A stretch of DNA of 64,000 bases from an uncultured Bacilli bacterium (GTDB lineage: Bacteria; Bacillota_I; Bacilli_A; RF39; UBA660), in NCBI GenBank assembly GCA_910587325.1, contig CAJUKB010000002.1:32349-96348 (forward strand), read 5' to 3'. How positions within the stretch are numbered: position 1 is the first letter of the stretch; each line of letters begins with the position of its first letter. A program made the position numbers and the translations under genes. Shown here piece after piece: positions 1,611 to 52,807 of the stretch. Below the pieces are notes generated by a model. That model worked only from the letters and a program-made list of their open reading frames with translations. It did no database searches and was not told the origin of the DNA.

Positions 1611-3439
1611 ATTTCATTATACTCCTTATCTAAGAAAAATATTTCGTACCATTTAAGAAAGCAATAAATAGTCCATACTTTTTTATAGGTATCTTTCTTA
1701 TGATTTTTATGTTCATCGAGTAGTTTTAGGATATAATCTTGGTTGAAGAATTCTCCTGCAAAATCTTGCTCAAAAGTATTTTTTACTTCATTATAGAAAT
1801 CCTCTTCTCTTAGCCATTCACGTAAAGGAACAGGAAACCCTAGTTTTTTCTTTTTATAAGATTCATTGGGGATTTCTTTTTTGGCAGCACTTCTTAAGGC
1901 GACTTTGGTGTTTTCTTTTGTAACTTTGTCTTTTTCCGTTAGTGTACTAGCAATTCCAAAAACTTCTTTATCTATAAAAGGAACTCTTCCTTCTATAGAG
2001 TTTGCCATTGTCATACGATCCGCTTTTTGTAAAATGTCTTTGATTAACCAAAAGTGAATATCAATTGCTTGTTTTTTAGTAATGTTATCTTTATCACTAA
2101 CTGACTCAAAAATCGGTTTTGTAATGTCTTTATTTTTGATAGTATCTACACATGTTAAAACTTTTTTACGCTCTCTTTCACTGAAAACTTTGTTCACCCC
2201 TATATAATCACTCTCTAAATTCGTACCACGTCTTACAATAAAGTTTCGCCCTGGAAATTCCGGTAAAAGGTTAAAGATGAGGGCGGCAAAATGTCTTAAT
2301 GGATATGGAATTTTGTTGTACCATTTTAAATCTACTTCTTCACGATAGTTATTGTATCCTCCAAAAAACTCGTCAGCTCCTTCTCCTGATAAAACAACTT
2401 TGACATCTTTACTTGCTAAATTCGAAACAAAATAAAGCATAATTGCAGCAGGGTCACTTGAAGGTTCGTCCATATGATAAAGGATTTTAGGAACAATATT
2501 CTTATATTCTTCTTTGGTAATTTTTTTGCTCGTATTGTTGATTTTCAATTTATCTGCTAAATCTTTTGCATAAAGAGTTTCATCGTATTTAGGGTTATCA
2601 TATCCTACTGTATAGGTTTTATCCGGTTTTGCAAGACTTACAATATAAGAAGAATCAATTCCACTTGATAAGAAAGAACCTACTTCTACATCACTTAACA
2701 TATGGTAAGAAACAGAATCTTTCATTGTGTTATTAATGGTTTCGACTACTTCTTTAAAATCTTGTTTTTTGGGATTAAATTCTATATCATAATAGCGTTC
2801 TATTTTGATGTCACCATCTTGATAAGTTAAAGAGCAACCCGGGTCTAAGCGATATACTCCTTTAAAGAAAGTTTCAGTAGTAGGAGTAAAACTAAACGAA
2901 AGATAAGGTCCAATTAATTCTTTATTAAGAACTTTATCAAATTTTGGATGTTCTAAAAAAGACTTAATTTCAGATGCAAATAGAAAAGTGCCTTCTGTTT
3001 GGTAATAGTAAAATGGTTTAATACCAAAGTTATCCCTTGCACAAAATAAGGAATTTTTATTCTTATCCCATATAGCAAAAGCAAACATTCCACGTAATTT
3101 TTTAGGTAAGTTGCTGCCCCATTCCTCGTACCCATGGATTAACACTTCGGTATCACAGCTTGTTTTAAATTCATGGTTCTTTTTTAACTCTTCTTTTAAT
3201 TCTATATAGTTGTAAATTTCTCCATTAAAGACAATTACTATTTGTTCGTTTTCATTAAACATAGGTTGACTACCTGTTGCTAAATCGATAATGGATAATC
3301 TTCTATGTCCTAATGCAACATAATCGTCTGTATAAAAACCTTCTCCATCCGGTCCACGATGACGAATCCTATCCGCCATGTTCTTAATGATTTGTTTTTT
3401 ATTTTTTTCTTTACTTACAAATCCGACAATTCCACACAT
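1607..3439 (-). CDS. asnB: asparagine synthase, glutamine-hydrolyzing
   Basis: The N-terminal MCGIVGF is the class-II amidotransferase nucleophile, and the synthetase domain motif SGGIDSS is present. Length is 610 aa. Confidence 0.85.
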   Translation of the reverse strand: MCGIVGFVSKEKNKKQIIKNMADRIRHRGPDGEGFYTDDYVALGHRRLSIIDLATGSQPMFNENEQIVIVFNGEIYNYIELKEELKKNHEFKTSCDTEVLIHGYEEWGSNLPKKLRGMFAFAIWDKNKNSLFCARDNFGIKPFYYYQTEGTFLFASEIKSFLEHPKFDKVLNKELIGPYLSFSFTPTTETFFKGVYRLDPGCSLTYQDGDIKIERYYDIEFNPKKQDFKEVVETINNTMKDSVSYHMLSDVEVGSFLSSGIDSSYIVSLAKPDKTYTVGYDNPKYDETLYAKDLADKLKINNTSKKITKEEYKNIVPKILYHMDEPSSDPAAIMLYFVSNLASKDVKVVLSGEGADEFFGGYNNYREEVDLKWYNKIPYPLRHFAALIFNLLPEFPGRNFIVRRGTNLESDYIGVNKVFSERERKKVLTCVDTIKNKDITKPIFESVSDKDNITKKQAIDIHFWLIKDILQKADRMTMANSIEGRVPFIDKEVFGIASTLTEKDKVTKENTKVALRSAAKKEIPNESYKKKKLGFPVPLREWLREEDFYNEVKNTFEQDFAGEFFNQDYILKLLDEHKNHKKDTYKKVWTIYCFLKWYEIFFLDKEYNEI

Positions 3440-3441
3440 AC

Positions 3442-5361
3442 TTATTCTCCTTTCGCTTTAGCAAGTTTACTATAAATATCTTTTTCTAACATAAGTTTAC
3501 TAATCGTAAAACTATTGGCAATTCGTTTATTCATATAAGCGATATAATCGTCACTTACTTCAACTCCCTCAAATCCTTTATTAGAAAAATACGTTCCTTT
3601 ATCGCTTCTCCAACTACGACTTGCAAATATAGCTAGACCTTCTTCGTCGCTAAACATATCTTGTCCAATTAATAATCTTGAATCATACTCAATTCCAAAT
3701 AAATTTAAGATAGTAGGCAAAACGTCTATTTGACTAGCTACTTTGTCAATCACTTTATGTTCATTATTAGTATTCCAAACAATTAAATTACTATGATTGA
3801 CTTCGACCATTTCTTCCCGTTTATATGTTGAAACTTCATTGATTTCTTCTTCTGTTAAAGTGTAGGGATAATGGTCTCCTGTTAAAACGACAACAGTATC
3901 ATCAAGAATTCCAACACTATCCAATTTTTCGATTAATGTTCTTAAAGCATATTCAAGTTCCATTTGGGCAGACAAATAAGCCTTAACTGCTGTACTATAG
4001 GGTAAGTCTTTTACAGCGTCTTTGTTTTTTATAGCAATACTATTGCCTCCCATAAAGTTATAAGGAGCATGTCCACTTACTGTAATGTAATAGGTAACAA
4101 AAGGTGTATTATTTGCATAGTCATTAAATGTTGTGTTAAACATATCTACATCACTTGGAAGCCAAGAACAATTGATTCTTTTTTCCATTCCATTTTTACA
4201 TGCGGTGTAGTTATCAAATCCAAGAGTCGGCATCGTCTTATGTCTACTATAGTACGTATATAACCAATTGTGATAACTTTGCGTGTTGTAACCAAGACGA
4301 GCAAAAGCGTTACCTATTGCATAGGAAATAGTTGGAGTTTCATTACGCCATATGCTTAATATTTCTTGGGTAGGAAGTAAACCTGTCATAGCTTGGAATT
4401 CTCCTCCAGTTGTACTTAAAAATTCAGGAGAATAGTAATTCGTAAAATCAAATCCCTCATGAATTAATTTATAAAGAGTTGGGGTTCTTGCTTCATCTAC
4501 CGCAATGGAATTGAATCCCTCTGCTAATATAAAGATTAAATTCTTTCCCTTATACAATCCTGTATATTCATTTTTGTTGGTTGCTTTTTTTGCATTTAAA
4601 TAACGATAGACATTCTTAACACTTTCGTCTTTTTCTTGGGCTATTAATGCATCAAAATCAATGTCTAGTTTATTATAAGAAATTTCTTCTTTATCTTCCT
4701 CTTTTTCTTCTAACATTAACTTTTCTTCAAAACCAAATATGGCTCTTTTAATACTTAATCTTTGGCTTGTAAATACTCCTAAAACTTCTGTAGAAGTTGT
4801 AAGAGCATCTAAATTGTAATATAGATTATAAGGCGAATATAGACTTGTTTTATCCAAGTTTAAAGATAAAATAGAAAACATATAAATGCAGACGCAAAGA
4901 AAAACTTTTTTTATTTTAACTTTCTTATGTTTTTTTGTAAAATCAAAATTATTCTTATATACAAGGAACACAAAGAATGGAATTAGAAAGATTAAAATAT
5001 TTAAAAAATCAGTTTGAATTAAATGAAGACCTATTTCATAAAAACTTAAAGCATTATTGGCAAGTTCTAAATCATTAATTGAAAAAGGCATAGAAAATAA
5101 GGAAAAATATAAAAAGTTAAATAAATAGAAAGCAACAATCAACACTACAAAAAAAGTAGAAATACGCCTGTTAGTTTTTTCTTTAAAAAAATGGGTAAAA
5201 AAACTTAGTAAGCAAGATAAGCTTAAACTAAACAATAGTACAATTAAAAATTCTTTCCCTAATAATTTATTAAACATTAAAATTTTATTTATTGCTTCTA
5301 AATAAATAAAAAGAAATAGATAGAGAATGATTGTAGAATACTTCTTTTTCATACTTCTCAC
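3442..5361 (-). CDS. LTA synthase (LtaS) family sulfatase-domain membrane protein
   Basis: About five N-terminal transmembrane helices are followed by an extracellular sulfatase/alkaline-phosphatase-like domain. Length is 639 aa. Confidence 0.6.
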   Translation of the reverse strand: MRSMKKKYSTIILYLFLFIYLEAINKILMFNKLLGKEFLIVLLFSLSLSCLLSFFTHFFKEKTNRRISTFFVVLIVAFYLFNFLYFSLFSMPFSINDLELANNALSFYEIGLHLIQTDFLNILIFLIPFFVFLVYKNNFDFTKKHKKVKIKKVFLCVCIYMFSILSLNLDKTSLYSPYNLYYNLDALTTSTEVLGVFTSQRLSIKRAIFGFEEKLMLEEKEEDKEEISYNKLDIDFDALIAQEKDESVKNVYRYLNAKKATNKNEYTGLYKGKNLIFILAEGFNSIAVDEARTPTLYKLIHEGFDFTNYYSPEFLSTTGGEFQAMTGLLPTQEILSIWRNETPTISYAIGNAFARLGYNTQSYHNWLYTYYSRHKTMPTLGFDNYTACKNGMEKRINCSWLPSDVDMFNTTFNDYANNTPFVTYYITVSGHAPYNFMGGNSIAIKNKDAVKDLPYSTAVKAYLSAQMELEYALRTLIEKLDSVGILDDTVVVLTGDHYPYTLTEEEINEVSTYKREEMVEVNHSNLIVWNTNNEHKVIDKVASQIDVLPTILNLFGIEYDSRLLIGQDMFSDEEGLAIFASRSWRSDKGTYFSNKGFEGVEVSDDYIAYMNKRIANSFTISKLMLEKDIYSKLAKAKGE

Positions 5362-32277: not shown

Positions 32278-32463
32278 CTACCAACTTGACTTCTTAACGC
32301 CAGGTATTTGGCCCTTATTTGCTAATTCTCTAAAACAGATACGACATAATTTGTATTTACGAAGTACACCATGAGGACGTCCACATCTTTCACAACGTGT
32401 ATAGGCACGAACTTTAAATTTTGGTGTTCTTTGTTGTTTCACTTTTAAACTTGTTTTTGCCAT
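32278..32463 (-). CDS. rpsZ: 30S ribosomal protein S14 type Z (zinc-binding)
   Basis: It is 61 aa and carries the CxxC...CxxC zinc-binding motif. Confidence 0.9.
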
Positions 32464-41254: not shown

Positions 41255-42655
41255 TTATTTTTCTTTGCTTTTTCTATTTTGTCTTTTAGCTATAAATACA
41301 CCTATTCCAATTCCTAAAATCAAATCCACAACCGCAACTACTTTTCCAACTATGTCTTTGCTTACTTCTTTATCCATTAAAGGAATTTTAATGGTATCTT
41401 TTTTCTCCTCTTGTTTTTCTTCTATACTCTCTATTTGGTCTTCTTTAGTTTCTACATTTTGGAGACTATCACTATTTTTATTCGTTTCTTCGTTTTCTAC
41501 ATTCACTTCAATATTAGAACTATTATTATTTTCCTCTTTAGAAGCACTACTTTGACTATTTTTGTTTGCACTTGTTGCATTATTTTTATTTGTAGAAGAA
41601 TTTACATTCGTTGTTGAGGAAGAAGAATTAGCGCTATTAGAAGTACTTCCTGCATTCGAGTTATTTTCTTGGATGATGTTAAATAAATAACTATTTTTGG
41701 TTACTCCATCTTCTGCTGTAATCGTTAATTTACAAGTTTTAGTGCCATCTGCAATTGTACAAGCTTTACTTGTATGGTTTTGTTTATTACTATTAGTGAT
41801 AAAAGTAAAATATAAACTGCTGGCATTTTTATTCATTTTCACATCATATTCATGCGTATTAGGATTAAAAGTTTTGGTTAAAGTTCCACCATGTACTACT
41901 AAATTTGAAATACTTGCATCTGTGGACAACGTATTATTATAAACATTTTTACGTGTCACAGTAATCGTATAAGTTTTTTGGTTTCCTGCTTCCGCCTCAA
42001 CAACAATCTTACAAAGATTAATACCTACTTTTAAAGAACAAGTGCTTCCACTAATCACTTTGGCTTTACTATTGTTAACAATTGGGTTCCATTTTATAGA
42101 ACTAACCTTGTTATTTACAGTAATGCTATAAAGTTCTAAACTAGGATTAAATTTTGGAGATATACTTCCACTACTTGGAGTAATGGATTTTAAAGTGGCG
42201 TCTTTACTAATGCTACATGTTTCATCATAAGTCGATTTTGATACAATACTACCATTTTCTCCAAAATAATTTCCATAAGAATCTTTGACACATTTATTTA
42301 ATTTATAACTTAAGTTATGGACGGTATATTCACTATTATCAGTCATAGTAACTTCTATAGTTGCTACAGTGTAAGAACCTGTCATGCTTCCATTACGATA
42401 AAAATAGAACGTATTATTATTTCCTGTTTTATTTAGCCAAGAATTGCTCATCGTAATTTTGGTGATTTTTCCATTTGTTACTCCAATACTACCACTAATG
42501 GTATTTAGTTTGATGTTATCCACCGTCAATGTAAATTCATAGGTATTATTTGAGGTTTTCACCGGATGATTAAAACGAATTTCTCCTGCATTTACTAAAA
42601 CAGGCAATAACAAAAAGATAATCATTCCAATTAGATAATTTTTGATTTTTTTCAT
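41255..42655 (-). CDS. surface protein with cadherin-like beta-sandwich repeats, a Ser/Asn-rich stalk and a C-terminal transmembrane anchor
   Basis: The signal peptide is MKKIKNYLIGMIIFLLLPVLVNA. Two repeats (SITPSSGSISPKFNPSLELYSITV and LSNLVVHGGTLTKTFNPNTHEYDVKM) are followed by a low-complexity Ser/Asn-rich linker and the C-terminal transmembrane segment VVAVVDLILGIGIGVFIA. Confidence 0.55.
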   Translation of the reverse strand: MKKIKNYLIGMIIFLLLPVLVNAGEIRFNHPVKTSNNTYEFTLTVDNIKLNTISGSIGVTNGKITKITMSNSWLNKTGNNNTFYFYRNGSMTGSYTVATIEVTMTDNSEYTVHNLSYKLNKCVKDSYGNYFGENGSIVSKSTYDETCSISKDATLKSITPSSGSISPKFNPSLELYSITVNNKVSSIKWNPIVNNSKAKVISGSTCSLKVGINLCKIVVEAEAGNQKTYTITVTRKNVYNNTLSTDASISNLVVHGGTLTKTFNPNTHEYDVKMNKNASSLYFTFITNSNKQNHTSKACTIADGTKTCKLTITAEDGVTKNSYLFNIIQENNSNAGSTSNSANSSSSTTNVNSSTNKNNATSANKNSQSSASKEENNNSSNIEVNVENEETNKNSDSLQNVETKEDQIESIEEKQEEKKDTIKIPLMDKEVSKDIVGKVVAVVDLILGIGIGVFIAKRQNRKSKEK

Positions 42656-42680
42656 AATAAAATCCCCCTCGTACTACATT

Positions 42681-44186
42681 TTATTTTATTAATAAGCTTT
42701 CACTATCTTTCATTTCTTTTGGTTTTGCAATGTCCATATAATCTAAAATCGTAGGAGCAATATTGGTTAAATCTCCTTTTTCTTTTAGTTTGACATTTTC
42801 ATCTAGCAGAACAAATGGCACTTTGGATAAAGTATGCGTTGTCACTGGATTTTCTTCCTCGTCTATCATAATATCGGCATTTCCATGGTCTGCTGTTACA
42901 ATGACTTTATAAAAGTTTGCCTCTGCTGCTTCTAAAATTTTTCCAAGGCAGACATCAACTGCCATAACGGCTTTCACTGCTGCATCGTAATTTCCGGTGT
43001 GTCCTACCATATCTGGATTTGCAAAATTCACTAAAATAAAATCCACATCTCGTTCCATACAAGCGATTGTTTTTTTCGTTACTTCTACAGCACTCATTCG
43101 TGGGTCTTGGTCATAAGTTTTGACTTTTAAAGAAGGTATTAAGACTTTTGTACAATTTTCTATATTCCCATCGTATTCTCCATCAAAGAAATAGGTAACA
43201 TGAGCATATTTTTCTGTTTCTGCTATTCTTGCTTGTGAAAGTCCTAGTTTGGATAAATAAATTCCAAGAGGATTTTCAACTATCTCTTCGTCTAAAAATG
43301 AAATTGTTTTGATTTTTTTGTCAATAGGAATAAAACTATAAACATCTAAGTCATTATAACTTACAACTTGAAAGTTATTATAGTCTTTATTGGTGAAACA
43401 ATCAAGTATTTGTTTCGCACGATCTGTACGATAATTCATCCATACAACAATATCCCCCTCTTTGATAATTCCTTTTTGTTTTAATACAATAGGAGGCAAG
43501 AATTCATCTGTAACATTCTTTTTATAACAAGTGTTGATAGCACCATGTACACTTTTTGCTAATGCACCTGTTCCTTTTGTAATCAAATCATAATAGGTTT
43601 TCGTTCTATCTAATTTGTTATCACGATCCATGGCATAAAATCTTCCACAAAGGGTAGCAATACTTCCAACACCTTGTTCTTGCATTTTGTCTTCTAATAC
43701 TTTTATATATTTATAAGCATCGTTGGTTTTAGTATCCCTTCCATCAGTAATGAGATGGAAATAAATTTCTTTTACTCCATCATTCACTAAATGTTCATAT
43801 AGTTTTAAAAAATGGTTCATATCAGAGTGAACTAATCCATCACTAAACAAACCCATAATATGTACTCTATTTTTTTTCTCTTTGTTTTTCTTTATTAATT
43901 CTTGGTAATTTTCATCCTCGTCTATTTGGTTATCTAGAAATTCATGAATACGACTTGCATCTTGAAGTAGTTTTCTTCCAGCACCAATTGTCATATGCCC
44001 TACTTCGCTATTTCCAAATTGTCCTTTTAAAAGTCCAATTGGTTCTTCAGAGGCTGATAGCAAAGTATGAGGATATTTTTTCCATATTTCATTAAAATTA
44101 TTAGGCTTTGCATCAAAAATAGCGTTTCCATGTTCTTCTTCACGATACCCAAACCCATCTAGTATAATTGTTAATATTTTTTTCAT
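42681..44186 (-). CDS. gpmI: 2,3-bisphosphoglycerate-independent phosphoglycerate mutase
   Basis: The iPGM N-terminus ILTIILDGFG and the segment GNSEVGHMTIGAGR are present. Length is 501 aa. Confidence 0.9.
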   Translation of the reverse strand: MKKILTIILDGFGYREEEHGNAIFDAKPNNFNEIWKKYPHTLLSASEEPIGLLKGQFGNSEVGHMTIGAGRKLLQDASRIHEFLDNQIDEDENYQELIKKNKEKKNRVHIMGLFSDGLVHSDMNHFLKLYEHLVNDGVKEIYFHLITDGRDTKTNDAYKYIKVLEDKMQEQGVGSIATLCGRFYAMDRDNKLDRTKTYYDLITKGTGALAKSVHGAINTCYKKNVTDEFLPPIVLKQKGIIKEGDIVVWMNYRTDRAKQILDCFTNKDYNNFQVVSYNDLDVYSFIPIDKKIKTISFLDEEIVENPLGIYLSKLGLSQARIAETEKYAHVTYFFDGEYDGNIENCTKVLIPSLKVKTYDQDPRMSAVEVTKKTIACMERDVDFILVNFANPDMVGHTGNYDAAVKAVMAVDVCLGKILEAAEANFYKVIVTADHGNADIMIDEEENPVTTHTLSKVPFVLLDENVKLKEKGDLTNIAPTILDYMDIAKPKEMKDSESLLIK

Positions 44187-44237
44187 ATAATCACCATTTG
44201 CTTAAATTATACTATTAAATAGTTGAAAATACAAATT

Positions 44238-45428
44238 CTATTCCTTATTTTTTAATGATAACTTTGCTATTTCTACTTCTTCTATTGGTAAAAAATAGTA
44301 CTCATAGTTTTCGCATATTTCGTAATAAAAGCTGCTTACACTTTTTTCCCAGCGTATAATTTCTTCATATAGTTCTTTTTCCTTTTCAGGGTCAGGCATC
44401 TCTTTTCGACCTGCTACGTGATAACAAGCTAACTTTTCTAAACTATCCATGTTATATTCATTATAATGTCTTTTAAAGTTTCCACAAAAACAGATAATTC
44501 CTGCTTCTGGAGTTGGATAGGCTAAATGTTCTCCATTGTATTTCATTCCTCCAAAATTATTACGTGTATTGGATGAATAACTTCCATACATGCTGATTTC
44601 TGTATAAGATGCAGAAAGAGCTATACTTTTATCTTCTATTTTAAAGAAATCACAAATCTTTCCAACAAATGTACTATATTTTTCTCCTGTACTTAAGTAA
44701 AAACTATTTAAGTTATTATGAGAAGCAGTTGTTATTTTCTCGGTTGTTACTAATTCTTCTTTATTATAATCAATGTCTAAATCTCCACGATTAAGAAGAT
44801 AAATAAAAAACAAACAAGCGGATTCTGGAGATGTAATTTCATATTCTTCAGGAATTACATTTTCAAAATTTGTATAATGGTTTGTATAAGTTTTTGCAAG
44901 TTCTATTACCTTTTTAGCATCGAAATGAAAATATTTACTATATTCACGTAAGTAAGATTCATATATAAGATTTTCATCGTCTTCGTCTTCTGGGATGGTA
45001 TAAGATGCAATTAAATCATCTATTTCTTTTTGAATTTCTAAATCATTTTTCTCATATTCATTCTCTATATTGTAAGGGATTTCTATTTTTTCTAAAATCA
45101 TTTCTTCTGCATAACTTTTTTCAACATTTTCTTTACTTGCTAAAGCAGTAGTTACAATTATGCAAATTGCAGCAATATATTTTGCTTTATAAGAAAGTGG
45201 AAATCCATTTAAATTTTTTTCATATTTTTTTAATAATATATTACAAATCTTTTCATATTTCTTATTCACAATAAAAGATTGTGACATAGAGTTAATTATC
45301 ACAGGAGTACTTTTTATATTAACTCCTTTTGCAGAAATTTTATTTAATATATCTAGGTAGATGCACCTCCTAATGTACCCCCCCCCCAGGATACTTCCTA
45401 AAGTTGAGACATTTTTCACTTTCTTCAC
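44238..45428 (-). CDS. hypothetical protein with a G10 tract in its 5' end, possibly a C39-like cysteine peptidase
   Basis: It starts with GTG after the site AGAGGTG. Codons 14-17 (LGGG) are encoded by ctg followed by nine more G. An internal hydrophobic segment and Cys/His motifs (SPESACLFFIY, CYHVAGR) are present. Confidence 0.5.
   Translation of the reverse strand: MKKVKNVSTLGSILGGGYIRRCIYLDILNKISAKGVNIKSTPVIINSMSQSFIVNKKYEKICNILLKKYEKNLNGFPLSYKAKYIAAICIIVTTALASKENVEKSYAEEMILEKIEIPYNIENEYEKNDLEIQKEIDDLIASYTIPEDEDDENLIYESYLREYSKYFHFDAKKVIELAKTYTNHYTNFENVIPEEYEITSPESACLFFIYLLNRGDLDIDYNKEELVTTEKITTASHNNLNSFYLSTGEKYSTFVGKICDFFKIEDKSIALSASYTEISMYGSYSSNTRNNFGGMKYNGEHLAYPTPEAGIICFCGNFKRHYNEYNMDSLEKLACYHVAGRKEMPDPEKEKELYEEIIRWEKSVSSFYYEICENYEYYFLPIEEVEIAKLSLKNKE
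45378..45387 (-). repeat. homopolymeric G10 tract (C10 on the plus strand) inside the 5' coding region
   Basis: It is read directly from the sequence and is the only G or C homopolymer longer than 5 in the window. Confidence 0.9.
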
Positions 45429-45458
45429 CTCTTTCGCTTCGTAAGCACAACAGAAAGC

Positions 45459-45487
45459 ATTTTACTATACTTCACAATGCTTGTCAA
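45459..45487 (-). promoter_or_regulatory. sigma-A-type promoter for the G-tract gene
   Basis: On the minus strand a perfect TTGACA, a 17-nt spacer and TAAAAT lie about 30 nt upstream of the GTG start. Confidence 0.5.
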
Positions 45488-45554
45488 ACGAAAGAATCCA
45501 AAAAACGTCTTAAAAGTTTACCTACTTGTTTAAAATAATTTATTTGCTTTTTTC

Positions 45555-45586
45555 CAAATAAAAAAGATAACATATAGTTCGTTATC
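45555..45586 (-). terminator. rho-independent terminator after spo0A
   Basis: On the minus strand GATAAC-gaactatat-GTTATC is followed by TTTTTTATTT immediately after the TAA stop. Confidence 0.55.
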
Positions 45587-46366
45587 TTATGAAAATACTA
45601 CTTTATTTTTTAATCTTAAGTTGTCCGCTAACGTAGCAATGAACTCAGAATTCGTAGGTTTACTTCTATCAAAGTCTACACTATTTCCAAATAACTCTTC
45701 CATTACGTCATAATCTCCTCTAGCCCAAGAAACTTCAATCGCATGGCGAATGGCTCTTTCTACGCGACTAGCAGTTGTATCAAAACGATTGGCAATTTCC
45801 GGATAGATACATTTTGTAATTCCACCAATCATATCTGGATTTTGATACATCATGTAAATACTTTCACGAATGTATTGGTATCCTCTAATATGAGAAGGAA
45901 TTCCTAAAGCATGAAGCATTCTGCTAATAGCAATTTCTACTTTGTTGTCTTTTATATCTTCTTCTGGCTCATTATTTACAATGCCTATGATTCTTTTTTC
46001 TAGAGTTTGCATATTAATTGGTTTTAACATCAAATAATCTACGTTGTAAGGACTAACGAGTTTCATAGCAGAATCTTTACCATAACTTGTTAAAATCATC
46101 ACATTCTTTTTGATATTACGTTTTTGCATTTCTTCTAAAATACTAATGCCATCCACTTCTGGCATAATAATATCCATTAAAATAATGTCAAACTCGTCAT
46201 GGTGTTTTAAAATGTAATCCAAACCATCCTTCCCATTATTAATTGTTTCTTTTAAATTTATTACTGCGTGACTACTAAAATACTGCTTTGCTCTACTAAT
46301 AACTGATTCTGTATCATCAATCAAAAGTGCATTAATTGTTGTTTTCATCCTCTTCTCCTTTATCAC
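45587..46366 (-). CDS. spo0A: sporulation transcription factor Spo0A
   Basis: The receiver domain has DD and D (LMDIIMPEVDG). The C-terminal domain is near-identical to the Spo0A signature (HIRGYQY, TTASRVERAIRHAIEV, KPTNSEFIA). Confidence 0.85.
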   Translation of the reverse strand: MIKEKRMKTTINALLIDDTESVISRAKQYFSSHAVINLKETINNGKDGLDYILKHHDEFDIILMDIIMPEVDGISILEEMQKRNIKKNVMILTSYGKDSAMKLVSPYNVDYLMLKPINMQTLEKRIIGIVNNEPEEDIKDNKVEIAISRMLHALGIPSHIRGYQYIRESIYMMYQNPDMIGGITKCIYPEIANRFDTTASRVERAIRHAIEVSWARGDYDVMEELFGNSVDFDRSKPTNSEFIATLADNLRLKNKVVFS

Positions 46367-46469
46367 TATATTTTTACTGCACGCAAGTTCATTATAAAAC
46401 GAAAGTAGAAGAAAATACTAGGAAATGTTTTGTCTTGTTGTGTCAAGAGATGTAAAAATTTGTCGTTTC

Positions 46470-47171
46470 TTAGAGAATCTCAAAAACTTTACATATATTT
46501 TTAGGGTTATTGGCACAATTTCCAAGAAGATAGCCATCGATATTGTCAAGTTTTGCAAGGTCTTTTATATTATTTGTAGTAATTCCTCCTCCATAAAGAA
46601 TAGGAAGAGTAAAATTATAAGACTTATAAATTTCCTTTTTTAGTTTTTCTGCAATATTATCTATTACTTTTGTATTGATATCGTATTTCTCATTTATTGC
46701 CCAACAAGGTTCATACGCTAGAATAATATTTTCTCTTTCCTTAGATGTCAATTTTGTAAATATCTTTTTCACTTCTTTCTTTACTTCGACAATGGTTTCG
46801 TCCATCGTTTGGCGATTTTTTTCTCCAACGCATAAAACCACGCGGATATTTTCTTTCGTGGCATTTTTTATTTTTAAAATTATATTTTCAAATGTTTCTT
46901 TTGCCTCAAAGTGATTTACAAGAACATAAGAAATTTTCATACTTTTTAATTGACTAGCTAAAACTTCTCCGGTATGATTACCACTTTCATAAATCGAAAT
47001 AGTTTGACTTCCAATTTTGTAAGAAACATCATAAAAGAAAGGTAAGTAGATGCTCGTTGGAAATAAAACAAGTTCTAATCCTTCCTTATTTATATCTTTC
47101 AGTTTATTCTTGTATTCTAATATTTCTTTTAAAGTTTTATTTGATTTTAAATTACACATCAAGTACTTCAA
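46470..47171 (-). CDS. tpiA: triose-phosphate isomerase, divergent
   Basis: Catalytic Lys (NLKSN), His (VNHFE) and Glu (AYEPCWA) plus the YGGG phosphate loop are conserved. Loop 6 is altered. A TTG start is preferred because AAGGAGG lies 9 nt upstream. It sits between pgk and spo0A. Confidence 0.65.
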   Translation of the reverse strand: MKYLMCNLKSNKTLKEILEYKNKLKDINKEGLELVLFPTSIYLPFFYDVSYKIGSQTISIYESGNHTGEVLASQLKSMKISYVLVNHFEAKETFENIILKIKNATKENIRVVLCVGEKNRQTMDETIVEVKKEVKKIFTKLTSKERENIILAYEPCWAINEKYDINTKVIDNIAEKLKKEIYKSYNFTLPILYGGGITTNNIKDLAKLDNIDGYLLGNCANNPKNICKVFEIL

Positions 47172-48363
47172 TTTCTTCTTCCTCCTTGATAGCATCTATT
47201 CCTACTAAATGGCCTTTAGTTAAGTATTCAAGAGTAGCTCCTCCGCCAACTGAAAGGTAAGTTAAATCCTCAGCAAATCCAAACATTTTCGTAGCGCTAA
47301 CGGAATCTCCTCCTCCAACGACTACAACGGCATCTTGGTTCTTTAGTATATTTAATAATTCCTTCGTTCCGTTTGAGTATCTTGCTTCTTCATATCTTCC
47401 CATTGTTCCATTTAAGAATATGGTTTTACTCGTTTTTATGGCTGTTTTATACTTTTCTAATGTTTTAATGCCTACATCCATAATCACTTCATTATCTCCA
47501 ATTTCGTTAATTCGTTTATAACGAGTGTAGTTCTCTTCATACGTACTTCCAACAATAGCGTCAAGTGGAAGCATAAGTTTGTCACGATAGGTAAGCATAA
47601 TTTGTTTTAAAGTTTCTAAAGTTTTATTACTCTCTGTAGCTAGGGAAGAACCGATATTAAAATTTAGGGCTTTTAAAAAACTATTGGCAAGTCCTCCTGC
47701 TAAAAGTAAATGGTCACATTTTGGTAACATGGTGGAAATAAGCTCTAACTTATCTTCTACTTTCGCTCCTCCCATAATCACTGTAAAAGGGTGTTCGGGC
47801 GTTTTTAAAAAACGGTCTAAAGAAACAAGTTCTCTTTCTACCGAAAATCCAATACAACTTGGTAGGTATTTGGCTATTCCTACAACAGAAGCATGGGCAC
47901 GATGACTCGAGGCAAAAGCATCATTCACAAATACATCAGCAAGAGAAGCAAAAAAGGAAGAAACTTGTGCATCACAGTTTGATTCAAGTTTATTTGGGAC
48001 ATCTAAAAATCTTGTATTTTCAAGCATTAAAATATCACGGGGAAGCATAAGTTCAATTCTCTTCGGAAGCTCAGGGTCTAAAATTTCACGGCTAAAATAT
48101 ACTTCTCTGCCTACAAGTTCTTTTAGTCTTTTTGCTACCGGCTCTAAAGAGTTATATAACTTATCTTCTTCATTTTTCACTTTTCCTAAATGACTTAAAA
48201 TAATAATTTTACAATTGTTTTTAATAAGGTAACGAATTGTTTCTAAACTAGCAACAATTTTTGTGTCGTCTAGAATTCTACCATTATAAATAGGTACGTT
48301 GTAGTCACACCTTACAATGACTGTTTTATCTTTTAATTCCATATTTTCTATTCTTTTTTTCAT
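47152..48363 (-). CDS. pgk: phosphoglycerate kinase
   Basis: The PGK N-terminal motif VRCDYNVP and the C-terminal nucleotide-binding region are present. Length is 403 aa. Confidence 0.9.
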   Translation of the reverse strand: MKKRIENMELKDKTVIVRCDYNVPIYNGRILDDTKIVASLETIRYLIKNNCKIIILSHLGKVKNEEDKLYNSLEPVAKRLKELVGREVYFSREILDPELPKRIELMLPRDILMLENTRFLDVPNKLESNCDAQVSSFFASLADVFVNDAFASSHRAHASVVGIAKYLPSCIGFSVERELVSLDRFLKTPEHPFTVIMGGAKVEDKLELISTMLPKCDHLLLAGGLANSFLKALNFNIGSSLATESNKTLETLKQIMLTYRDKLMLPLDAIVGSTYEENYTRYKRINEIGDNEVIMDVGIKTLEKYKTAIKTSKTIFLNGTMGRYEEARYSNGTKELLNILKNQDAVVVVGGGDSVSATKMFGFAEDLTYLSVGGGATLEYLTKGHLVGIDAIKEEEEIEVLDV

Positions 48364-48383
48364 TTATAAGTTTCCTCCATTCA

Positions 48384-50138
48384 TTATCTTTTCATATCAT
48401 TAGCATATAATCTTTGGTAATATTCATTATTTTTTAATAAATTCTTATGGGTATCTTTTCCTACAACTTTTCCATTTTGCATCACGACAATTTGATTGCT
48501 TTCTTTTATTGTGGATAATCTATGTGCGATAATAATAATTGTATATTCTCCCTGTAAATTGTTTATCGCTTGTGTTATATTTTGTTGCGTTTCATTATCA
48601 AGAGCACTTGTTGCCTCATCAAACAATATGATTTTAGCATCTGTAAGTAAGGCTCTTGCAATTGCAATCCTTTGTCTTTGTCCTCCTGACAAGTTTACAC
48701 CGCCTTCCCCTAACTCCGTTTCGTATTTTTTAGGTAGCGACATAATAAAGTCATGAATACACGCTTTTTTACACACATCCTCAATTTCTTTCATTGTTGC
48801 ATTTTTTTTAACAATTTGAAAGTTTTCCTTAACAGAAAAATTAAATATATACGGATTCTGTGTTATAAAAGAAATATTTCCTCTTAAGCTTTCTTCTGTT
48901 AAATCTTCTATATTATATCCATCGATTGTTATTTTCCCACTATTTATTCTATATAATTTTGTAATAATATTAAAAATAGTTGTTTTTCCAGCACCACTTT
49001 CTCCAACAATAGCAGTTGTTTGGAATGCAGGAATTTCTAGATTTAACTTTTTAAGCACGTTAATCCCTTCAATATATCCAAAATTAACGTTTTCAAATTT
49101 AAAAGTACCATCTAATTTTTTGACTTTTAATGCTCCAAATTGTTCTTTTTGATATTTTCCATCTATAATTTCAAATACTCTCTCTGCAGAAAGATTAAAC
49201 GATTTTAAGACTTCTAGTAACTCTATAATTGTTACTAAAAAATCAAATACTTTATCACTATACATAAACAAAATAACAAAATTGGCAACAAGTAACATAT
49301 CATTCTTTATTAAGTAGATACATAATATTATAAATAATAAGTTAGCAGCATTTTTTAAAAACTCTCGTAATAGTTCATATCGTTTTGTCATTTCAGACAT
49401 TTGGTATTGAATTATATTTGCCTGTTTTAATTTTTTATAGATTTTACTTTCAAAAGCAGAATAACAATTTAGTACTTTGATATCTCTTATTCCTCTAACC
49501 AATTCCGAAACTAACCCGGTGTTGGCTTCTTTTACTTTTTTAAAATATTTTGTTCGTTCATATTGTCTCACTAGGTACATTTTTTCAAAGTAAAAAATAA
49601 TAGTTAAAACAATTATAAAAAAAATAAATACAATTTTATTGATAGTATAAACTGCAAATAAAATTCCCACATTTGTGATAATTACGTTTATTTTCTTAAA
49701 AATAGTTCTAAATATTTCTGCTATATCAGAGGCATCCTGACTTAATCTATCAATAAAAACTCCCGAAGAATTTGCATCGATTTCTTTTGTTTCTAAATCA
49801 ATCATACTTCTAGCCACTTCGACTTGTATATTTAAATAAGTTTCTCTATAAAATACACGTGAAACTTTGCTAGCCAAATAGCTAACAAAGCTTGATAACA
49901 TTCTCATAGAAACAAAACAGATTGCAACTACGATTAATTGTAGCCACAATTCATTTTGGATTTTTAAGATAACTTGGGCTGAAATAAGTGGAATAATAGC
50001 ACCAATTATACCTACTATAATGCTTAAAAAAATATAAGCTATAAATAATTTTTTATTTTCTTCCATATATTTATAGGCTTTTTTCATATATTGTATTGAA
50101 TCTTTTATACCTAATTTTTTCATGTTACTTTTCCTCAT
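48384..50138 (-). CDS. ABC exporter with fused permease and ATPase (MsbA/MdlB-like)
   Basis: Six N-terminal transmembrane helices are followed by Walker A GESGAGKTT, the signature LSGGQRQR and Walker B ILFDEATS. The start is set at an internal Met just after the gap stop. Confidence 0.8.
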   Translation of the reverse strand: MRKSNMKKLGIKDSIQYMKKAYKYMEENKKLFIAYIFLSIIVGIIGAIIPLISAQVILKIQNELWLQLIVVAICFVSMRMLSSFVSYLASKVSRVFYRETYLNIQVEVARSMIDLETKEIDANSSGVFIDRLSQDASDIAEIFRTIFKKINVIITNVGILFAVYTINKIVFIFFIIVLTIIFYFEKMYLVRQYERTKYFKKVKEANTGLVSELVRGIRDIKVLNCYSAFESKIYKKLKQANIIQYQMSEMTKRYELLREFLKNAANLLFIILCIYLIKNDMLLVANFVILFMYSDKVFDFLVTIIELLEVLKSFNLSAERVFEIIDGKYQKEQFGALKVKKLDGTFKFENVNFGYIEGINVLKKLNLEIPAFQTTAIVGESGAGKTTIFNIITKLYRINSGKITIDGYNIEDLTEESLRGNISFITQNPYIFNFSVKENFQIVKKNATMKEIEDVCKKACIHDFIMSLPKKYETELGEGGVNLSGGQRQRIAIARALLTDAKIILFDEATSALDNETQQNITQAINNLQGEYTIIIIAHRLSTIKESNQIVVMQNGKVVGKDTHKNLLKNNEYYQRLYANDMKR

Positions 50139-50145
50139 CTTATAG

Positions 50146-51153
50146 CTATTCTTCAAACATTTTTTTAGCGGTTCGAAGCATTTGTGCCGTGTAGCCCATT
50201 TCATTGTCATACCAACTTGCTATTTTTACAAGTTGTTTGTCTTCTACATCCAATACATTGGTTAGAGAAGCATCTACTAAAGAGCCACACTTTTTACCAA
50301 TAATGTCACTTGATACTACGGGATCAAAGGTTACTTTTAGGGTATCGCTTTGGTTATTTAATAAAGCATTGTTAATATCACTCTCTGTTACTTTTGTTTT
50401 TAGTTCTAAAACCAAGTCTACTAAAGAGCCATCACTTACAGGTACTCGGTAAGCAAGACCATCTAGCTTTCCTGAAAGTTCTGGTATTACTTCTCCAATG
50501 GCTTTCGTTACTCCCGTAGAGGTTGGAATGATATTTTGAGCTGCAGCACGTCCACGTCTTTCTTTAATTCCTTTTTTGTGGGGAATATCAAGAGTTGCTT
50601 GATCATTAGTGTACGCATGAATGGTACTCATAAATCCTTTTTCAATTCCAAAAGTATCATGAATTACTTTTAAAACAGGGGCAAGGCAATTGGTAGTACA
50701 AGACGCTGCTGATAAAATGACATCCTCGTTTGTAATTATAGAATCATTTACACCATACACAATAGTTTTCACTCCACCCTTAGCAGGGGCAGAAATGAGT
50801 ACTTTTTTGGCTCCAGCCTCAATATGTTTATGAGCATCTTCCAAATTAGTAAATAAACCTGTGCATTCTAAAACCAAATCTACCTCTAGTTCTTTCCAAG
50901 GCAAATTGCTTGGGTCACTTTCTTTGTATACTTTAATTCTTTTTCGTGTGTTTATGACTAGCTCATCATTATCAAAGTCAATTAAATCTTCATGAAATGC
51001 GCGATGATTTGTATCGTACTTTAAAAGATAGGCTAGTTGTTCAGGGTCTGTTAAATCGTTTATAGCAACAATATCAAAAGTAGTTCCTGTTATCATTTCA
51101 CGAAAGGCGACTCTTCCAATTCTTCCAAATCCATTAATGGCAACTTTTATCAT
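50146..51153 (-). CDS. gap: glyceraldehyde-3-phosphate dehydrogenase
   Basis: The N-terminus INGFGRIGR and the active-site segment SCTTNCLAP are present. Confidence 0.9.
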   Translation of the reverse strand: MIKVAINGFGRIGRVAFREMITGTTFDIVAINDLTDPEQLAYLLKYDTNHRAFHEDLIDFDNDELVINTRKRIKVYKESDPSNLPWKELEVDLVLECTGLFTNLEDAHKHIEAGAKKVLISAPAKGGVKTIVYGVNDSIITNEDVILSAASCTTNCLAPVLKVIHDTFGIEKGFMSTIHAYTNDQATLDIPHKKGIKERRGRAAAQNIIPTSTGVTKAIGEVIPELSGKLDGLAYRVPVSDGSLVDLVLELKTKVTESDINNALLNNQSDTLKVTFDPVVSSDIIGKKCGSLVDASLTNVLDVEDKQLVKIASWYDNEMGYTAQMLRTAKKMFEE

Positions 51154-51169
51154 AAAATCAAATCCTTTC

Positions 51170-52807
51170 TTATCCGATAAATTCTCTTAAAATGGAATCT
51201 TTACTTATATATTCACTTGGTATAGGGTAAAAACCTCGTAAGGAATCAATTAGTCTTCTTGCTTCTTCATAATAAGGAGAATCAATTCCTACCGAATACA
51301 AAAGTGGTTCTACAAATACTTTTAGTACACCGACTTCAAAAGCATAAGCAGTATTCACAATAGAGTCAGCTTGATGAATAAAGGGAAAAATATATTTTTC
51401 TTCTCCTTCTCTTACACTTTGCCATAACTCAATTGTTTTTGCAACACTTGTTCCACGAGTACGATTGTCTCTAACTATCCTTCTTAGTAACCTTAAGTCC
51501 ACCGTAGAAACATAATTGTGCCTATCGATTCCTAAAGGAATAAAAGGACTTAAATAAATTTTATACTTGTATTTTTCTTCTATAGCAGATGTTAATTCTT
51601 CATTTAAGCCATGCAAGCCTTCAATTAGTAGAATACTATTTTCCTCTATTTTTACAACATTAGCACTTCTACTTTTCTTTTGAATAACAAAATCATAAAC
51701 AGGAAGATGTACTTCTTTTCCCTCTAGTAAGTCTTTTAAATCTTGGTTAAACATTTCCGTATCAATGGACTCTAAAGATTCAAAATCGTATTCTCCTTTT
51801 GCATTTTTTGGTATGTCTTGTCGTTCTTTATAGTAATCATCAACAGATATTGGAACGGTTTGGTATCCTAAGGATTTTAAATAACTTGCAAGTCGCTTCG
51901 TTGTTGTCGTTTTTCCTGTTGAAGAAGGTCCAGAAATTAAAATCATTTTCTTATCTTTAAGAGAGGCTATTTCACTTGCTAATGCAGTAATACTTTCATT
52001 AAAAACAAGTTCACAAGAGCCAATAAATTCTTGAATACGCCCACTACTTACTTCTTCGTTTAAGTCTGAAAGAAAAGGGATATGCATTTTTTTAAGCCAA
52101 TTCTGTCCTTCTAAGAAGGTATTTATAATTCCTTCATAATGAACGTATTCTGGTACAGACCCTTCGGTACGAGAACTTGGATATAATAAAACAATTCGAT
52201 TATTTTCTAAAAGCTTTAAATCAAATTTGTTAATATTCTTTGTATTATAAGGCATATCCGTATAGTAATAATTGTAGATATTTTTTAATTTATAAAAACT
52301 GACAATGTCATTGTTGGTATTATGAATATTCTTGGCTTTTTCATGCTGATTATGTGCATCAAAATAACGAATGGCCTCTTTTTTCTCAACATTGTATTTC
52401 ATTATTTTTTCGTCATTGTGGATAATACGAGCCATAGCTTCTTTTATTCTATTAATGTCTTCTTTTTCAATATCTTTTCCTTCAATTTCCGTCATGATTC
52501 CCTTAGGAACACTATGTAAAAAATGCACCTCAACTCCTGTGTAGGTTTCTTTTACCGCCACTTCAAATATAAATTTTAATGCTGCTTGGTACATACGATA
52601 GCCATAAGGATTTGTCACATCTAAAAAAGATACACTCGCGTTTTTGATTAACTTCGTGTGCATAGGAAGAATTTCGTTGTTTACTTTAACACCAATTATG
52701 TTATGTTTCATTTTAGGCTGATAACTTTCTGCTATTTCATAAAGTGGTGTTGCATAAGAAAAAGATTTCGTTGTTCCGTCAGGAAACGTAATTGTAATCT
52801 CTTGCAT
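51170..52807 (-). CDS. uridine kinase/phosphoribulokinase-family P-loop protein with an N-terminal TGS-like domain
   Basis: The N-terminus ITITFPDGTTKSFSYATPLYEIAE is TGS-like, and the P-loop GPSSTGKTT is present. Length is 545 aa. Confidence 0.6.
   Translation of the reverse strand: MQEITITFPDGTTKSFSYATPLYEIAESYQPKMKHNIIGVKVNNEILPMHTKLIKNASVSFLDVTNPYGYRMYQAALKFIFEVAVKETYTGVEVHFLHSVPKGIMTEIEGKDIEKEDINRIKEAMARIIHNDEKIMKYNVEKKEAIRYFDAHNQHEKAKNIHNTNNDIVSFYKLKNIYNYYYTDMPYNTKNINKFDLKLLENNRIVLLYPSSRTEGSVPEYVHYEGIINTFLEGQNWLKKMHIPFLSDLNEEVSSGRIQEFIGSCELVFNESITALASEIASLKDKKMILISGPSSTGKTTTTKRLASYLKSLGYQTVPISVDDYYKERQDIPKNAKGEYDFESLESIDTEMFNQDLKDLLEGKEVHLPVYDFVIQKKSRSANVVKIEENSILLIEGLHGLNEELTSAIEEKYKYKIYLSPFIPLGIDRHNYVSTVDLRLLRRIVRDNRTRGTSVAKTIELWQSVREGEEKYIFPFIHQADSIVNTAYAFEVGVLKVFVEPLLYSVGIDSPYYEEARRLIDSLRGFYPIPSEYISKDSILREFIG

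Follow-up and report, generated by a model that had tools for sequence, protein, structure and literature searches.

Introduction

Does a run of ten G residues just inside the 5′ end of an unannotated gene next to spo0A act as a heritable switch, or is it simply a stretch of glycine codons? The question arises from a 64-kb stretch of DNA (hereafter the window; 30.4% G+C) from an uncultured Bacilli bacterium (contig CAJUKB010000002.1 of assembly GCA_910587325.1, forward-strand positions 32,349 to 96,348), in which the tract lies in a minus-strand open reading frame (ORF) that we call gene X. A previous, sequence-only reading had recognized the architecture of a slipped-strand contingency gene, with a strong promoter followed by a tract at the very 5′ end of the coding region, and the comparisons described below bear this proposal out. 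Specifically, we consider it probable that G10 is a hypermutable simple-sequence repeat at which slipped-strand mispairing, occurring as the DNA replicates, turns gene X translation ON or OFF.

The tract occupies positions 45378–45387 (minus strand), where ten consecutive C residues on the plus strand correspond to G10 on the coding strand. A recount confirmed that this is the sole G or C run longer than five in the window, and a model of independent and identically distributed bases at this G+C content predicts 0.002 G/C runs of ten or more. It also exceeds the approximately 7 nucleotides (nt) from which G/C repeats are long enough to slip. The run sits some 30 nt inside ORF 44238..45428 (minus strand), which was found as described earlier and encodes 396 amino acids (aa) when counted from its first GTG. 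Upstream is a sigma-A-type promoter (45459..45487, minus strand) in which TTGACA (45487–45482), a 17-nt spacer and TAAAAT (45464–45459) provide 11 of 12 consensus matches. Both hexamers had already been pointed out, and they are kept in all lineages compared, including orthologs at 34–41% identity. The motif CTGTTGTG, located directly 3′ of the −10 hexamer at the start of the 5′ untranslated region (45443–45450, minus strand), is likewise kept in all lineages (L004, L005, L016, L018, L029 and L030), these distant orthologs among them. The next element is the previously noted ribosome-binding site AGAGGTG, read from the sequence at 45426..45432 (minus strand), and in every ortholog locus GAGGTG is followed by a start codon 5–8 nt on.

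Tract length varies among near-identical genomes

In terms of strain variation, the window and 19 other assemblies provided a same-species set of 20 sequences that are 99.2–100% identical. When proteins are clustered at 90% identity, those grouped with gene X are 393, 392 or 349 aa long, and the contigs encoding them were fetched. Across strains the tract was observed not to be invariant. A length of G10 is carried by the window and by contigs L001–L003, L009–L012, L023, L026 and L027, and G9 by two contigs from unrelated projects (L006 from SRR21846309 and L022 from ERR15105057). G8 is present in L007 and L008, which stem from two runs, and G7 in L013–L015, L024 and five similar places. Lengths are consistent within sequencing projects, and G7 was found in at least four runs of the SRR312033xx series. 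In addition, the NCBI metagenome-assembled genome (MAG) GCA_948716395.1 (CAPUWB010000022.1; L025:1396–1411) has GGGGGG and then ten N precisely where the tract lies, in aligned flanks that are 100% identical to the window. This gap reflects an assembly broken or scaffolded at the homopolymer and is a hint of mixed tract lengths.

The background against which these lengths vary is very uniform. From promoter to stop (1250 nt) there are only 7 single-nucleotide polymorphism (SNP) columns, and identical SNP haplotypes bear G10 in one case and G7 in another, with the same being true of G10 and G8 and of G10 and G9. Differing lengths on identical haplotypes imply at least four independent tract changes, which, compared with the 7 SNP columns, places the per-site rate of change in the tract at approximately 700 times that of the rest of gene X.

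With respect to the reading frame, lengths that depart from G10 by other than a multiple of three truncate the ORF early. The G8 allele reads GTA CAT TAG and stops after 13 codons at the TAG of 45370..45372 (minus strand), in the frame that G11 would share, and the G9 allele stops after 19 codons at the TAG of 45353..45355 (minus strand), as G12 would. The three-nucleotide change to G7 keeps the ORF, and its 392-aa proteins (P0018 and P0023) read ‘ILGGY’ at this site. In all of the OFF alleles the 349-codon ORF downstream of the tract is intact, and secondary lesions are absent. Gene calls of 349 aa were considered as a proxy for OFF alleles and rejected as unreliable. Five contigs with such calls (L009–L012 and L023) carry G10, so that the calls reflect the gene caller's choice of start, and tract lengths were therefore read from DNA only.

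The tract lies downstream of the start codon

Whether a length change would alter the protein depends on where translation begins. The first GTG of the ORF (45428–45426) falls inside the Shine-Dalgarno sequence, and the second (45417..45419, minus strand) lies 6 nt past GAGGTG. In three distant orthologs (L016, L018 and L030), GAGGTG is followed after 5–8 nt by an ATG that is homologous to the GTG at 45419, and the gene callers chose this GTG for P0001, P0020, P0021 and P0024. Translation therefore most likely starts at GTG 45419, which would give a protein of 393 aa. Counted from there, the tract runs from the last base of codon 11 to the end of codon 14, in which CTG GGG GGG GGG encodes Leu11-Gly12-Gly13-Gly14. 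The earlier placement of the tract in the 5′ coding region stands, and its assignment to codons 14–17 ran three codons too high, having been counted from the first GTG.

Two sister species also have the tract, and in these a 3-nt, frame-preserving indel lies between start and tract, with peptides that align on both sides. The conserved ribosome-binding site and start, this indel and the aligned N-terminal peptides together indicate that the tract is coding and downstream of the start codon. A start codon 3′ of the tract was considered and rejected: the GGAGGTG that follows the tract is not conserved in the sister species, no canonical start comes after it, and the upstream ribosome-binding site and start are conserved.

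The homopolymer is preserved across species and has arisen repeatedly

The sister species (P0002/L004 at 68% aa identity; P0003 and P0026/L005 and L029 at 66%) have exactly G10 in the same place, and both flanks of the tract diverge between them and the window species. Moreover, the tenth G, at a third codon position, belongs to a Leu codon (CTG) in the window species and to a Ser codon (TCG) in the sister species. In the long ORFs of the window, GGG accounts for 8.8% of Gly codons, CTG for 1.0% of Leu codons and TCG for 3.1% of Ser codons, and Gly-Gly-Gly occurs eight more times in the window, encoded by mixed codons. Given these rare codons and the mixed usage elsewhere, a coding need does not explain G10, and selection appears to preserve the repeat for more than its coding role.

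When the family is aligned, the tract region stands out as an insertion confined to the clade of the window and sister species. Two distant orthologs that lack the 5′ tract have independent in-frame G10 runs of their own, one at approximately codon 224 of P0008 (L018:4506–4515; ‘EEWGGGKKEE’) and one at approximately codon 63 of P0062 (L037:2685–2694, also in L038, L039 and L040; ‘KPSWGGGIF’), and both share synteny with the gene X locus. A further tract is found in a rabbit-gut MAG labeled ‘uncultured Bacilli’ (L019), where an extra gene for a 536-aa membrane or surface protein (2161/2192..3802; no Pfam match) sits between spo0A and the gene X ortholog. This gene has G10 at 2205–2214, fifteen codons past an ATG with a strong ribosome-binding site. 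At this length the ATG frame stops, corresponding to an OFF state, and G9 or G12 would join the ATG to the long ORF. All G/C runs of at least 8 nt in the examined ortholog loci and the 64-kb window are in gene X or in this L019 neighbor. Taken together, the fast mutation of the tract, its preservation across species and the repeated tracts in orthologs form a signature that points to selection for switchability.

Several further observations concern the tracts themselves. When the flanks were compared (window 45376–45390 with L004, L005, L018, L019 and L037), every G10 tract, covering four gene positions and one different gene, was found to be preceded by T (as CCT, TTC or AAT) and followed by TA. 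The tracts are exactly 10 long in almost every species' reference sequence. A mutational equilibrium or a preference for sequence context could underlie this uniformity in length and flanks. The family representative P0028 contains ‘YLGGGSPN’ at its C-terminus. A scan of JGI metagenomes with a DNA pattern returned 0 matches, and a protein-pattern scan returned one distant locus without a tract. A scan of representative-genome contigs, a set to which the window species does not belong, retrieved orthologs at no more than 42% identity.

Gene X encodes a probable membrane-anchored GH73-type glucosaminidase

The sequence-only reading had suggested a secreted papain/C39-like peptidase on the basis of Cys/His motifs, and this identification does not hold. 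No peptidase family of any kind, the papain/C39-like and transglutaminase-like ones included, was matched in hidden Markov model searches of Pfam and NCBIfam, and no cysteine peptidase is found among the fold matches listed. The cited residues are also not invariant, since P0011, P0013 and P0017 have another residue in place of the Cys of ‘ESACLFF’, and the His of ‘CYHVAGR’ is outside the invariant and near-invariant columns of a 17-sequence family alignment. The fold is instead that of GH73.

The window protein itself has no match in Pfam or NCBIfam (for PF01832, none at E ≤ 1). A profile built from 17 family members, in comparison, matches the GH73 glucosaminidase domain of the Clostridioides difficile endolysin Ecd09610 (PDB 8yxk_A) at E = 1.2e-5, with ‘..sysEigk....kNNfgGmk’ aligned to ‘SIHETGN...KNNFFGMK’, and 4 of the 17 members match PF01832 (best 2.9e-5). 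The GH73-like N-acetylglucosaminidase core (residues ~245–376; 44292..44687, minus strand) adopts the lysozyme-like alpha/beta fold of this family and contains the residues that are invariant in the alignment, namely E274 (in YTEIS), N287, N288 and G291 (NNFGGMK), and T303, E305 and G307 (TPEAG). E274 aligns with the Glu of ‘SIHETGN’ in 8yxk, which is the general-acid position of GH73, and it would accordingly be the catalytic general acid of gene X. The invariance of these catalytic-type residues across the family indicates purifying selection on the protein. From the combined profile, motif and fold evidence, the product of gene X is probably a membrane-anchored protein with a GH73-type peptidoglycan glucosaminidase domain.

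The full 393-aa protein (44238..45419, minus strand) has the organization of a type II membrane protein, consisting of a basic cytoplasmic tail, one transmembrane (TM) helix, an acidic linker, an all-alpha domain and the GH73-like domain. The N-terminal 74 residues are rich in Lys and Arg. They are followed by the single TM helix at residues ~75–94 (KAKYIAAICIIVTTALASKE; 45138..45197, minus strand), which is evident in the sequence, is a helix (75–94) in the AlphaFold2 (AF2) model and coincides with a hydrophobic block kept in the family alignment. The C-terminal flank of the helix is a linker rich in Glu and Asp. By the positive-inside rule, these features suggest an N-in, type II topology with the predicted hydrolase domain outside. 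A conserved extra all-alpha subdomain (residues ~145–240) precedes the core. The family as a whole is small, with 67 representatives at E ≤ 1e-30 among 1.84 billion.

Proposed mechanism

Building from these observations, the switch would operate as follows. Transcription would proceed from the conserved TTGACA-17-TAAAAT promoter and translation from GTG 45419. With G10 (or G7 or G13), the frame would pass through two or three Gly residues into the 392–393-aa type II membrane protein, whose extracytoplasmic GH73-like domain is a predicted peptidoglycan N-acetylglucosaminidase. With G9 or G8 (and with G11 or G12), ribosomes would halt after 19 or 13 codons, and no anchored hydrolase would be made. 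Changes in multiples of three would be tolerated, as what the tract encodes is a Gly linker within the cytoplasmic tail. The length changes themselves are most readily ascribed to replication slippage, presumably at high and reversible frequency within populations, and the switch would then be a form of adaptive bet-hedging. The phenotype at stake would be the presence or absence of a wall-remodeling enzyme, with possible effects on cell separation or the length of cell chains, on autolysis, on the shedding of wall fragments or on a sporulation-linked step.

Alternative explanations

Certain observations weigh against frequent switching. Gene-caller output overstates the number of OFF alleles, a genuine loss of frame being seen in only 4 contigs. 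Most assemblies (>10 samples) are G10, and the three tract-bearing species are exactly G10, whereas more variation might be anticipated in a tract that drifts freely. The variants could also be rare fixed indels rather than frequent switches, and Illumina errors in G-rich homopolymers could make some of the length calls wrong.

One alternative is that the tract is a genuine mutational hotspot of no adaptive value, the OFF alleles being loss-of-function variants under relaxed selection on the way to pseudogenization. The low proportion of out-of-frame contigs (4 of ~20) fits such an account, as does the situation in a fourth related lineage (P0027 and P0004; L028:176–345). There, the tract is interrupted (GGGGGAGGGG), and a 1-nt deletion downstream of it splits the gene into ORFs of 45 and 363 aa that overlap at GTGA. 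This single contig may represent a fixed or decayed switch, or a contig error. Nonetheless, an unselected G10 in a genome of 30% G+C should soon be interrupted by substitution, and it has been kept exactly across species at 66–68% aa identity. New G10 tracts have moreover been gained at other positions in orthologs, the OFF alleles are free of secondary lesions and the catalytic-type residues remain under purifying selection. We therefore regard a non-adaptive hotspot as unlikely.

A second alternative is that the tract is a stable G10 encoding a Gly3 linker, with the G7, G8 and G9 alleles and the N-gap arising from sequencing or assembly errors. Illumina chemistry has trouble with G runs. G10 is also the commonest length and is identical in three species, and the break of one MAG at the tract is what either poor reads or true heterogeneity can produce. 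With respect to this possibility, indels were listed from pairwise alignments with the window that cover 1.6–7 kb per contig, including flanks with A/T runs. Within gene X and its promoter the tract is the sole indel among same-species contigs, and the flanks contain one further homopolymer indel, a G5/G6 site at 42667, with the A/T runs unaffected. This pattern argues against a platform prone to homopolymer errors, and such a platform was accordingly rejected as the cause. The G7 and G8 alleles are also reproducible within projects, as noted above. Conservation of the run at the DNA level likewise speaks against error. Moreover, a need for Gly3 leaves unexplained the threefold use of the rarest Gly codon after an NNG codon that is itself rare, in amino-acid contexts that differ, and it does not account for the independent G10 tracts elsewhere in orthologs. 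An origin of the variants in error is thus decidedly improbable.

A role for the G run in RNA or translation (transcriptional slippage, ribosomal frameshifting or mRNA structure at the start) rather than in heritable DNA length is the least credible account, for although homopolymers are known to cause RNA polymerase slippage (PMC3711429) and the tract is near the start codon, the reference length is already in frame and needs no recoding, the DNA length itself differs between strains, the 5′ region folds with no greater stability than its shuffled versions (z = −1.2), the window has 0 Rfam matches and the post-tract GGAGGTG is not conserved in the sister species.

As a separate observation, the G5/G6 site (42663–42667, minus strand) is in the Shine-Dalgarno sequence ‘GAGGGGGATTTTATTATG’ of ORF 41255..42655, a cadherin-like surface protein gene. 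G5 becomes G6 in L006, L007, L008 and L010, which shifts the spacing between Shine-Dalgarno sequence and start by 1 nt.

Genomic neighborhood

The upstream neighbor of gene X (45587..46366, minus strand) had been named as spo0A, and the profile matches agree (TIGR02875, 233 bits against a cut-off of 200; Spo0A_C, 8.7e-41). Other gene callers place its start at 46348, for a protein of 253 aa. Gene X sits between spo0A and gpmI, in a gap-pgk-tpi-...-gpmI glycolytic cluster, wherever enough flank was recovered. The pair of spo0A and gene X occupies the interval from tpi to gpmI in all lineages (window 44186–52807; L001, L004, L029, L030 and L037).

Between spo0A and gene X is an intrinsic terminator (45560..45586, minus strand) that reads GATAAC-loop-GTTATC followed by T6. 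A G+C-based terminator scan missed it because the stem is A+T-rich. Its hairpin stem and T-run are kept, with differing loops, in L004, L029, L030 and L019, which suggests that gene X has its own transcription unit, separate from spo0A. On the other side of the gene, the intergenic sequence before gpmI contains a putative promoter, TTGTAT-17-TATAAT (44206..44234, minus strand), that is kept in the same four loci. As gpmI would have this conserved promoter of its own, an OFF frameshift in gene X need not silence it, and a polar effect on gpmI was considered unlikely.

Two further features of the region were observed. Genes for cadherin-like and pilin-like (N_methyl) surface proteins lie downstream. 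An ABC transporter gene (ABC_membrane and ABC_tran; window 48384–50210) is located between gap and pgk and is also present in L029. It is absent from the same-species L001 and from L004, which makes it a strain-variable insertion in the cluster.

Discussion

Homopolymer-driven phase variation is textbook knowledge for Campylobacter, Helicobacter, Neisseria, Haemophilus and the mycoplasmas. To our knowledge, it has rarely been documented in uncultured commensal gut Firmicutes/Bacilli, and our literature search found no example of phase variation in a GH73-type wall hydrolase. The mechanism proposed here is therefore already known. What would be new is the host lineage, the target (an unannotated GH73-like family syntenic with spo0A) and the convergence.

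In Campylobacter, the lack of mismatch repair underlies tract instability. The poly-G contingency genes of C. jejuni and C. coli constitute a ‘phasome’ (PMC6321876), and the resemblance to gene X is considerable: a low-GC (~30%) gut bacterium, G/C homopolymers of approximately 8–11 nt within surface-related coding regions, truncation of the ORF by changes other than multiples of three, and tracts conserved across strains and species. Campylobacter is, however, an epsilonproteobacterium, whereas the present organism belongs to an uncultured, Spo0A-encoding Bacilli lineage with relatives labeled ‘Tenericutes’ or ‘Bacilli’ in MAG records, and one tract was seen here in 64 kb. The architecture of gene X also matches that of the poly-G contingency genes of Neisseria (PMC3786947).

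In function, the nearest parallel is with the Campylobacter peptidoglycan peptidase genes pgp1 and pgp2, in which homopolymer variation changes cell shape (PMC5133587, PMC5530802). In both cases a peptidoglycan-modifying enzyme is, or in gene X would be, switched by intragenic homopolymer indels, and for pgp1 and pgp2 morphological heterogeneity has been proposed as the phase-variable trait. Those enzymes are carboxypeptidases of the periplasm, and their genes have tracts, mostly poly-A, at several sites, whereas gene X would be a membrane-anchored GH73-like glycosidase with one 5′ poly-G tract. Other coding-region homopolymer switches are the poly-A tract of Mycoplasma fermentans p78 (cited in PMC3711429) and the poly-C tract of Mycobacterium tuberculosis glpK (10.1101/717272). 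These resemble gene X in having a frameshifting homopolymer within the ORF, with reversible loss of a surface or metabolic function. They differ from it in nucleotide, gene and lineage, and their reversibility was shown experimentally, whereas gene X is known from assemblies.

With respect to the enzyme, the relevant comparison set comprises Ecd09610 (8yxk), Streptococcus pneumoniae LytB (7pj3), Enterococcus faecalis AtlA (7qfu), Listeria Auto (3fi7) and FlgJ. The Glu of the ‘xxE(T/I)G’ motif and the ‘NNFxGxK’ motif of the gene X family align with 8yxk. In contrast to this set, in which a signal peptide is combined with SH3b, LysM or choline-binding repeats, gene X has a cytoplasmic tail and a TM anchor. 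It is further distinguished by the extra all-alpha subdomain, by synteny with spo0A and by a window protein that has no PF01832 match at E ≤ 1.

In terms of significance, this work assigns a probable function, that of a peptidoglycan glucosaminidase, to an unannotated family syntenic with spo0A, and its convergent lines of evidence are drawn entirely from public assemblies. Counting tract lengths in reads would offer a concrete marker of population heterogeneity in a lineage represented only by MAGs. For annotators, the locus carries the warning that 349-aa calls, truncated calls and N-gaps here would be biological rather than errors, with the five 349-aa calls on G10 contigs reflecting the caller's choice of start.

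Finally, gene X stays beside spo0A in all of the lineages observed, and poly-G has been gained independently at no fewer than three positions in different species. On these grounds the switch could be read as heritable bet-hedging on a developmental or cell-envelope decision tied to Spo0A, with gene X supplying, for example, a wall hydrolase required for remodeling of the asymmetric septum, engulfment, spore release or cell separation, a reading that we regard as speculative and rather doubtful. If it were true, gut populations would be mixtures of cells competent and incompetent for sporulation or dispersal, and, together with the L019 tract, the locus would point to a poly-G ‘phasome’ of the Campylobacter kind in a gut lineage that is related to Mollicutes and forms spores.

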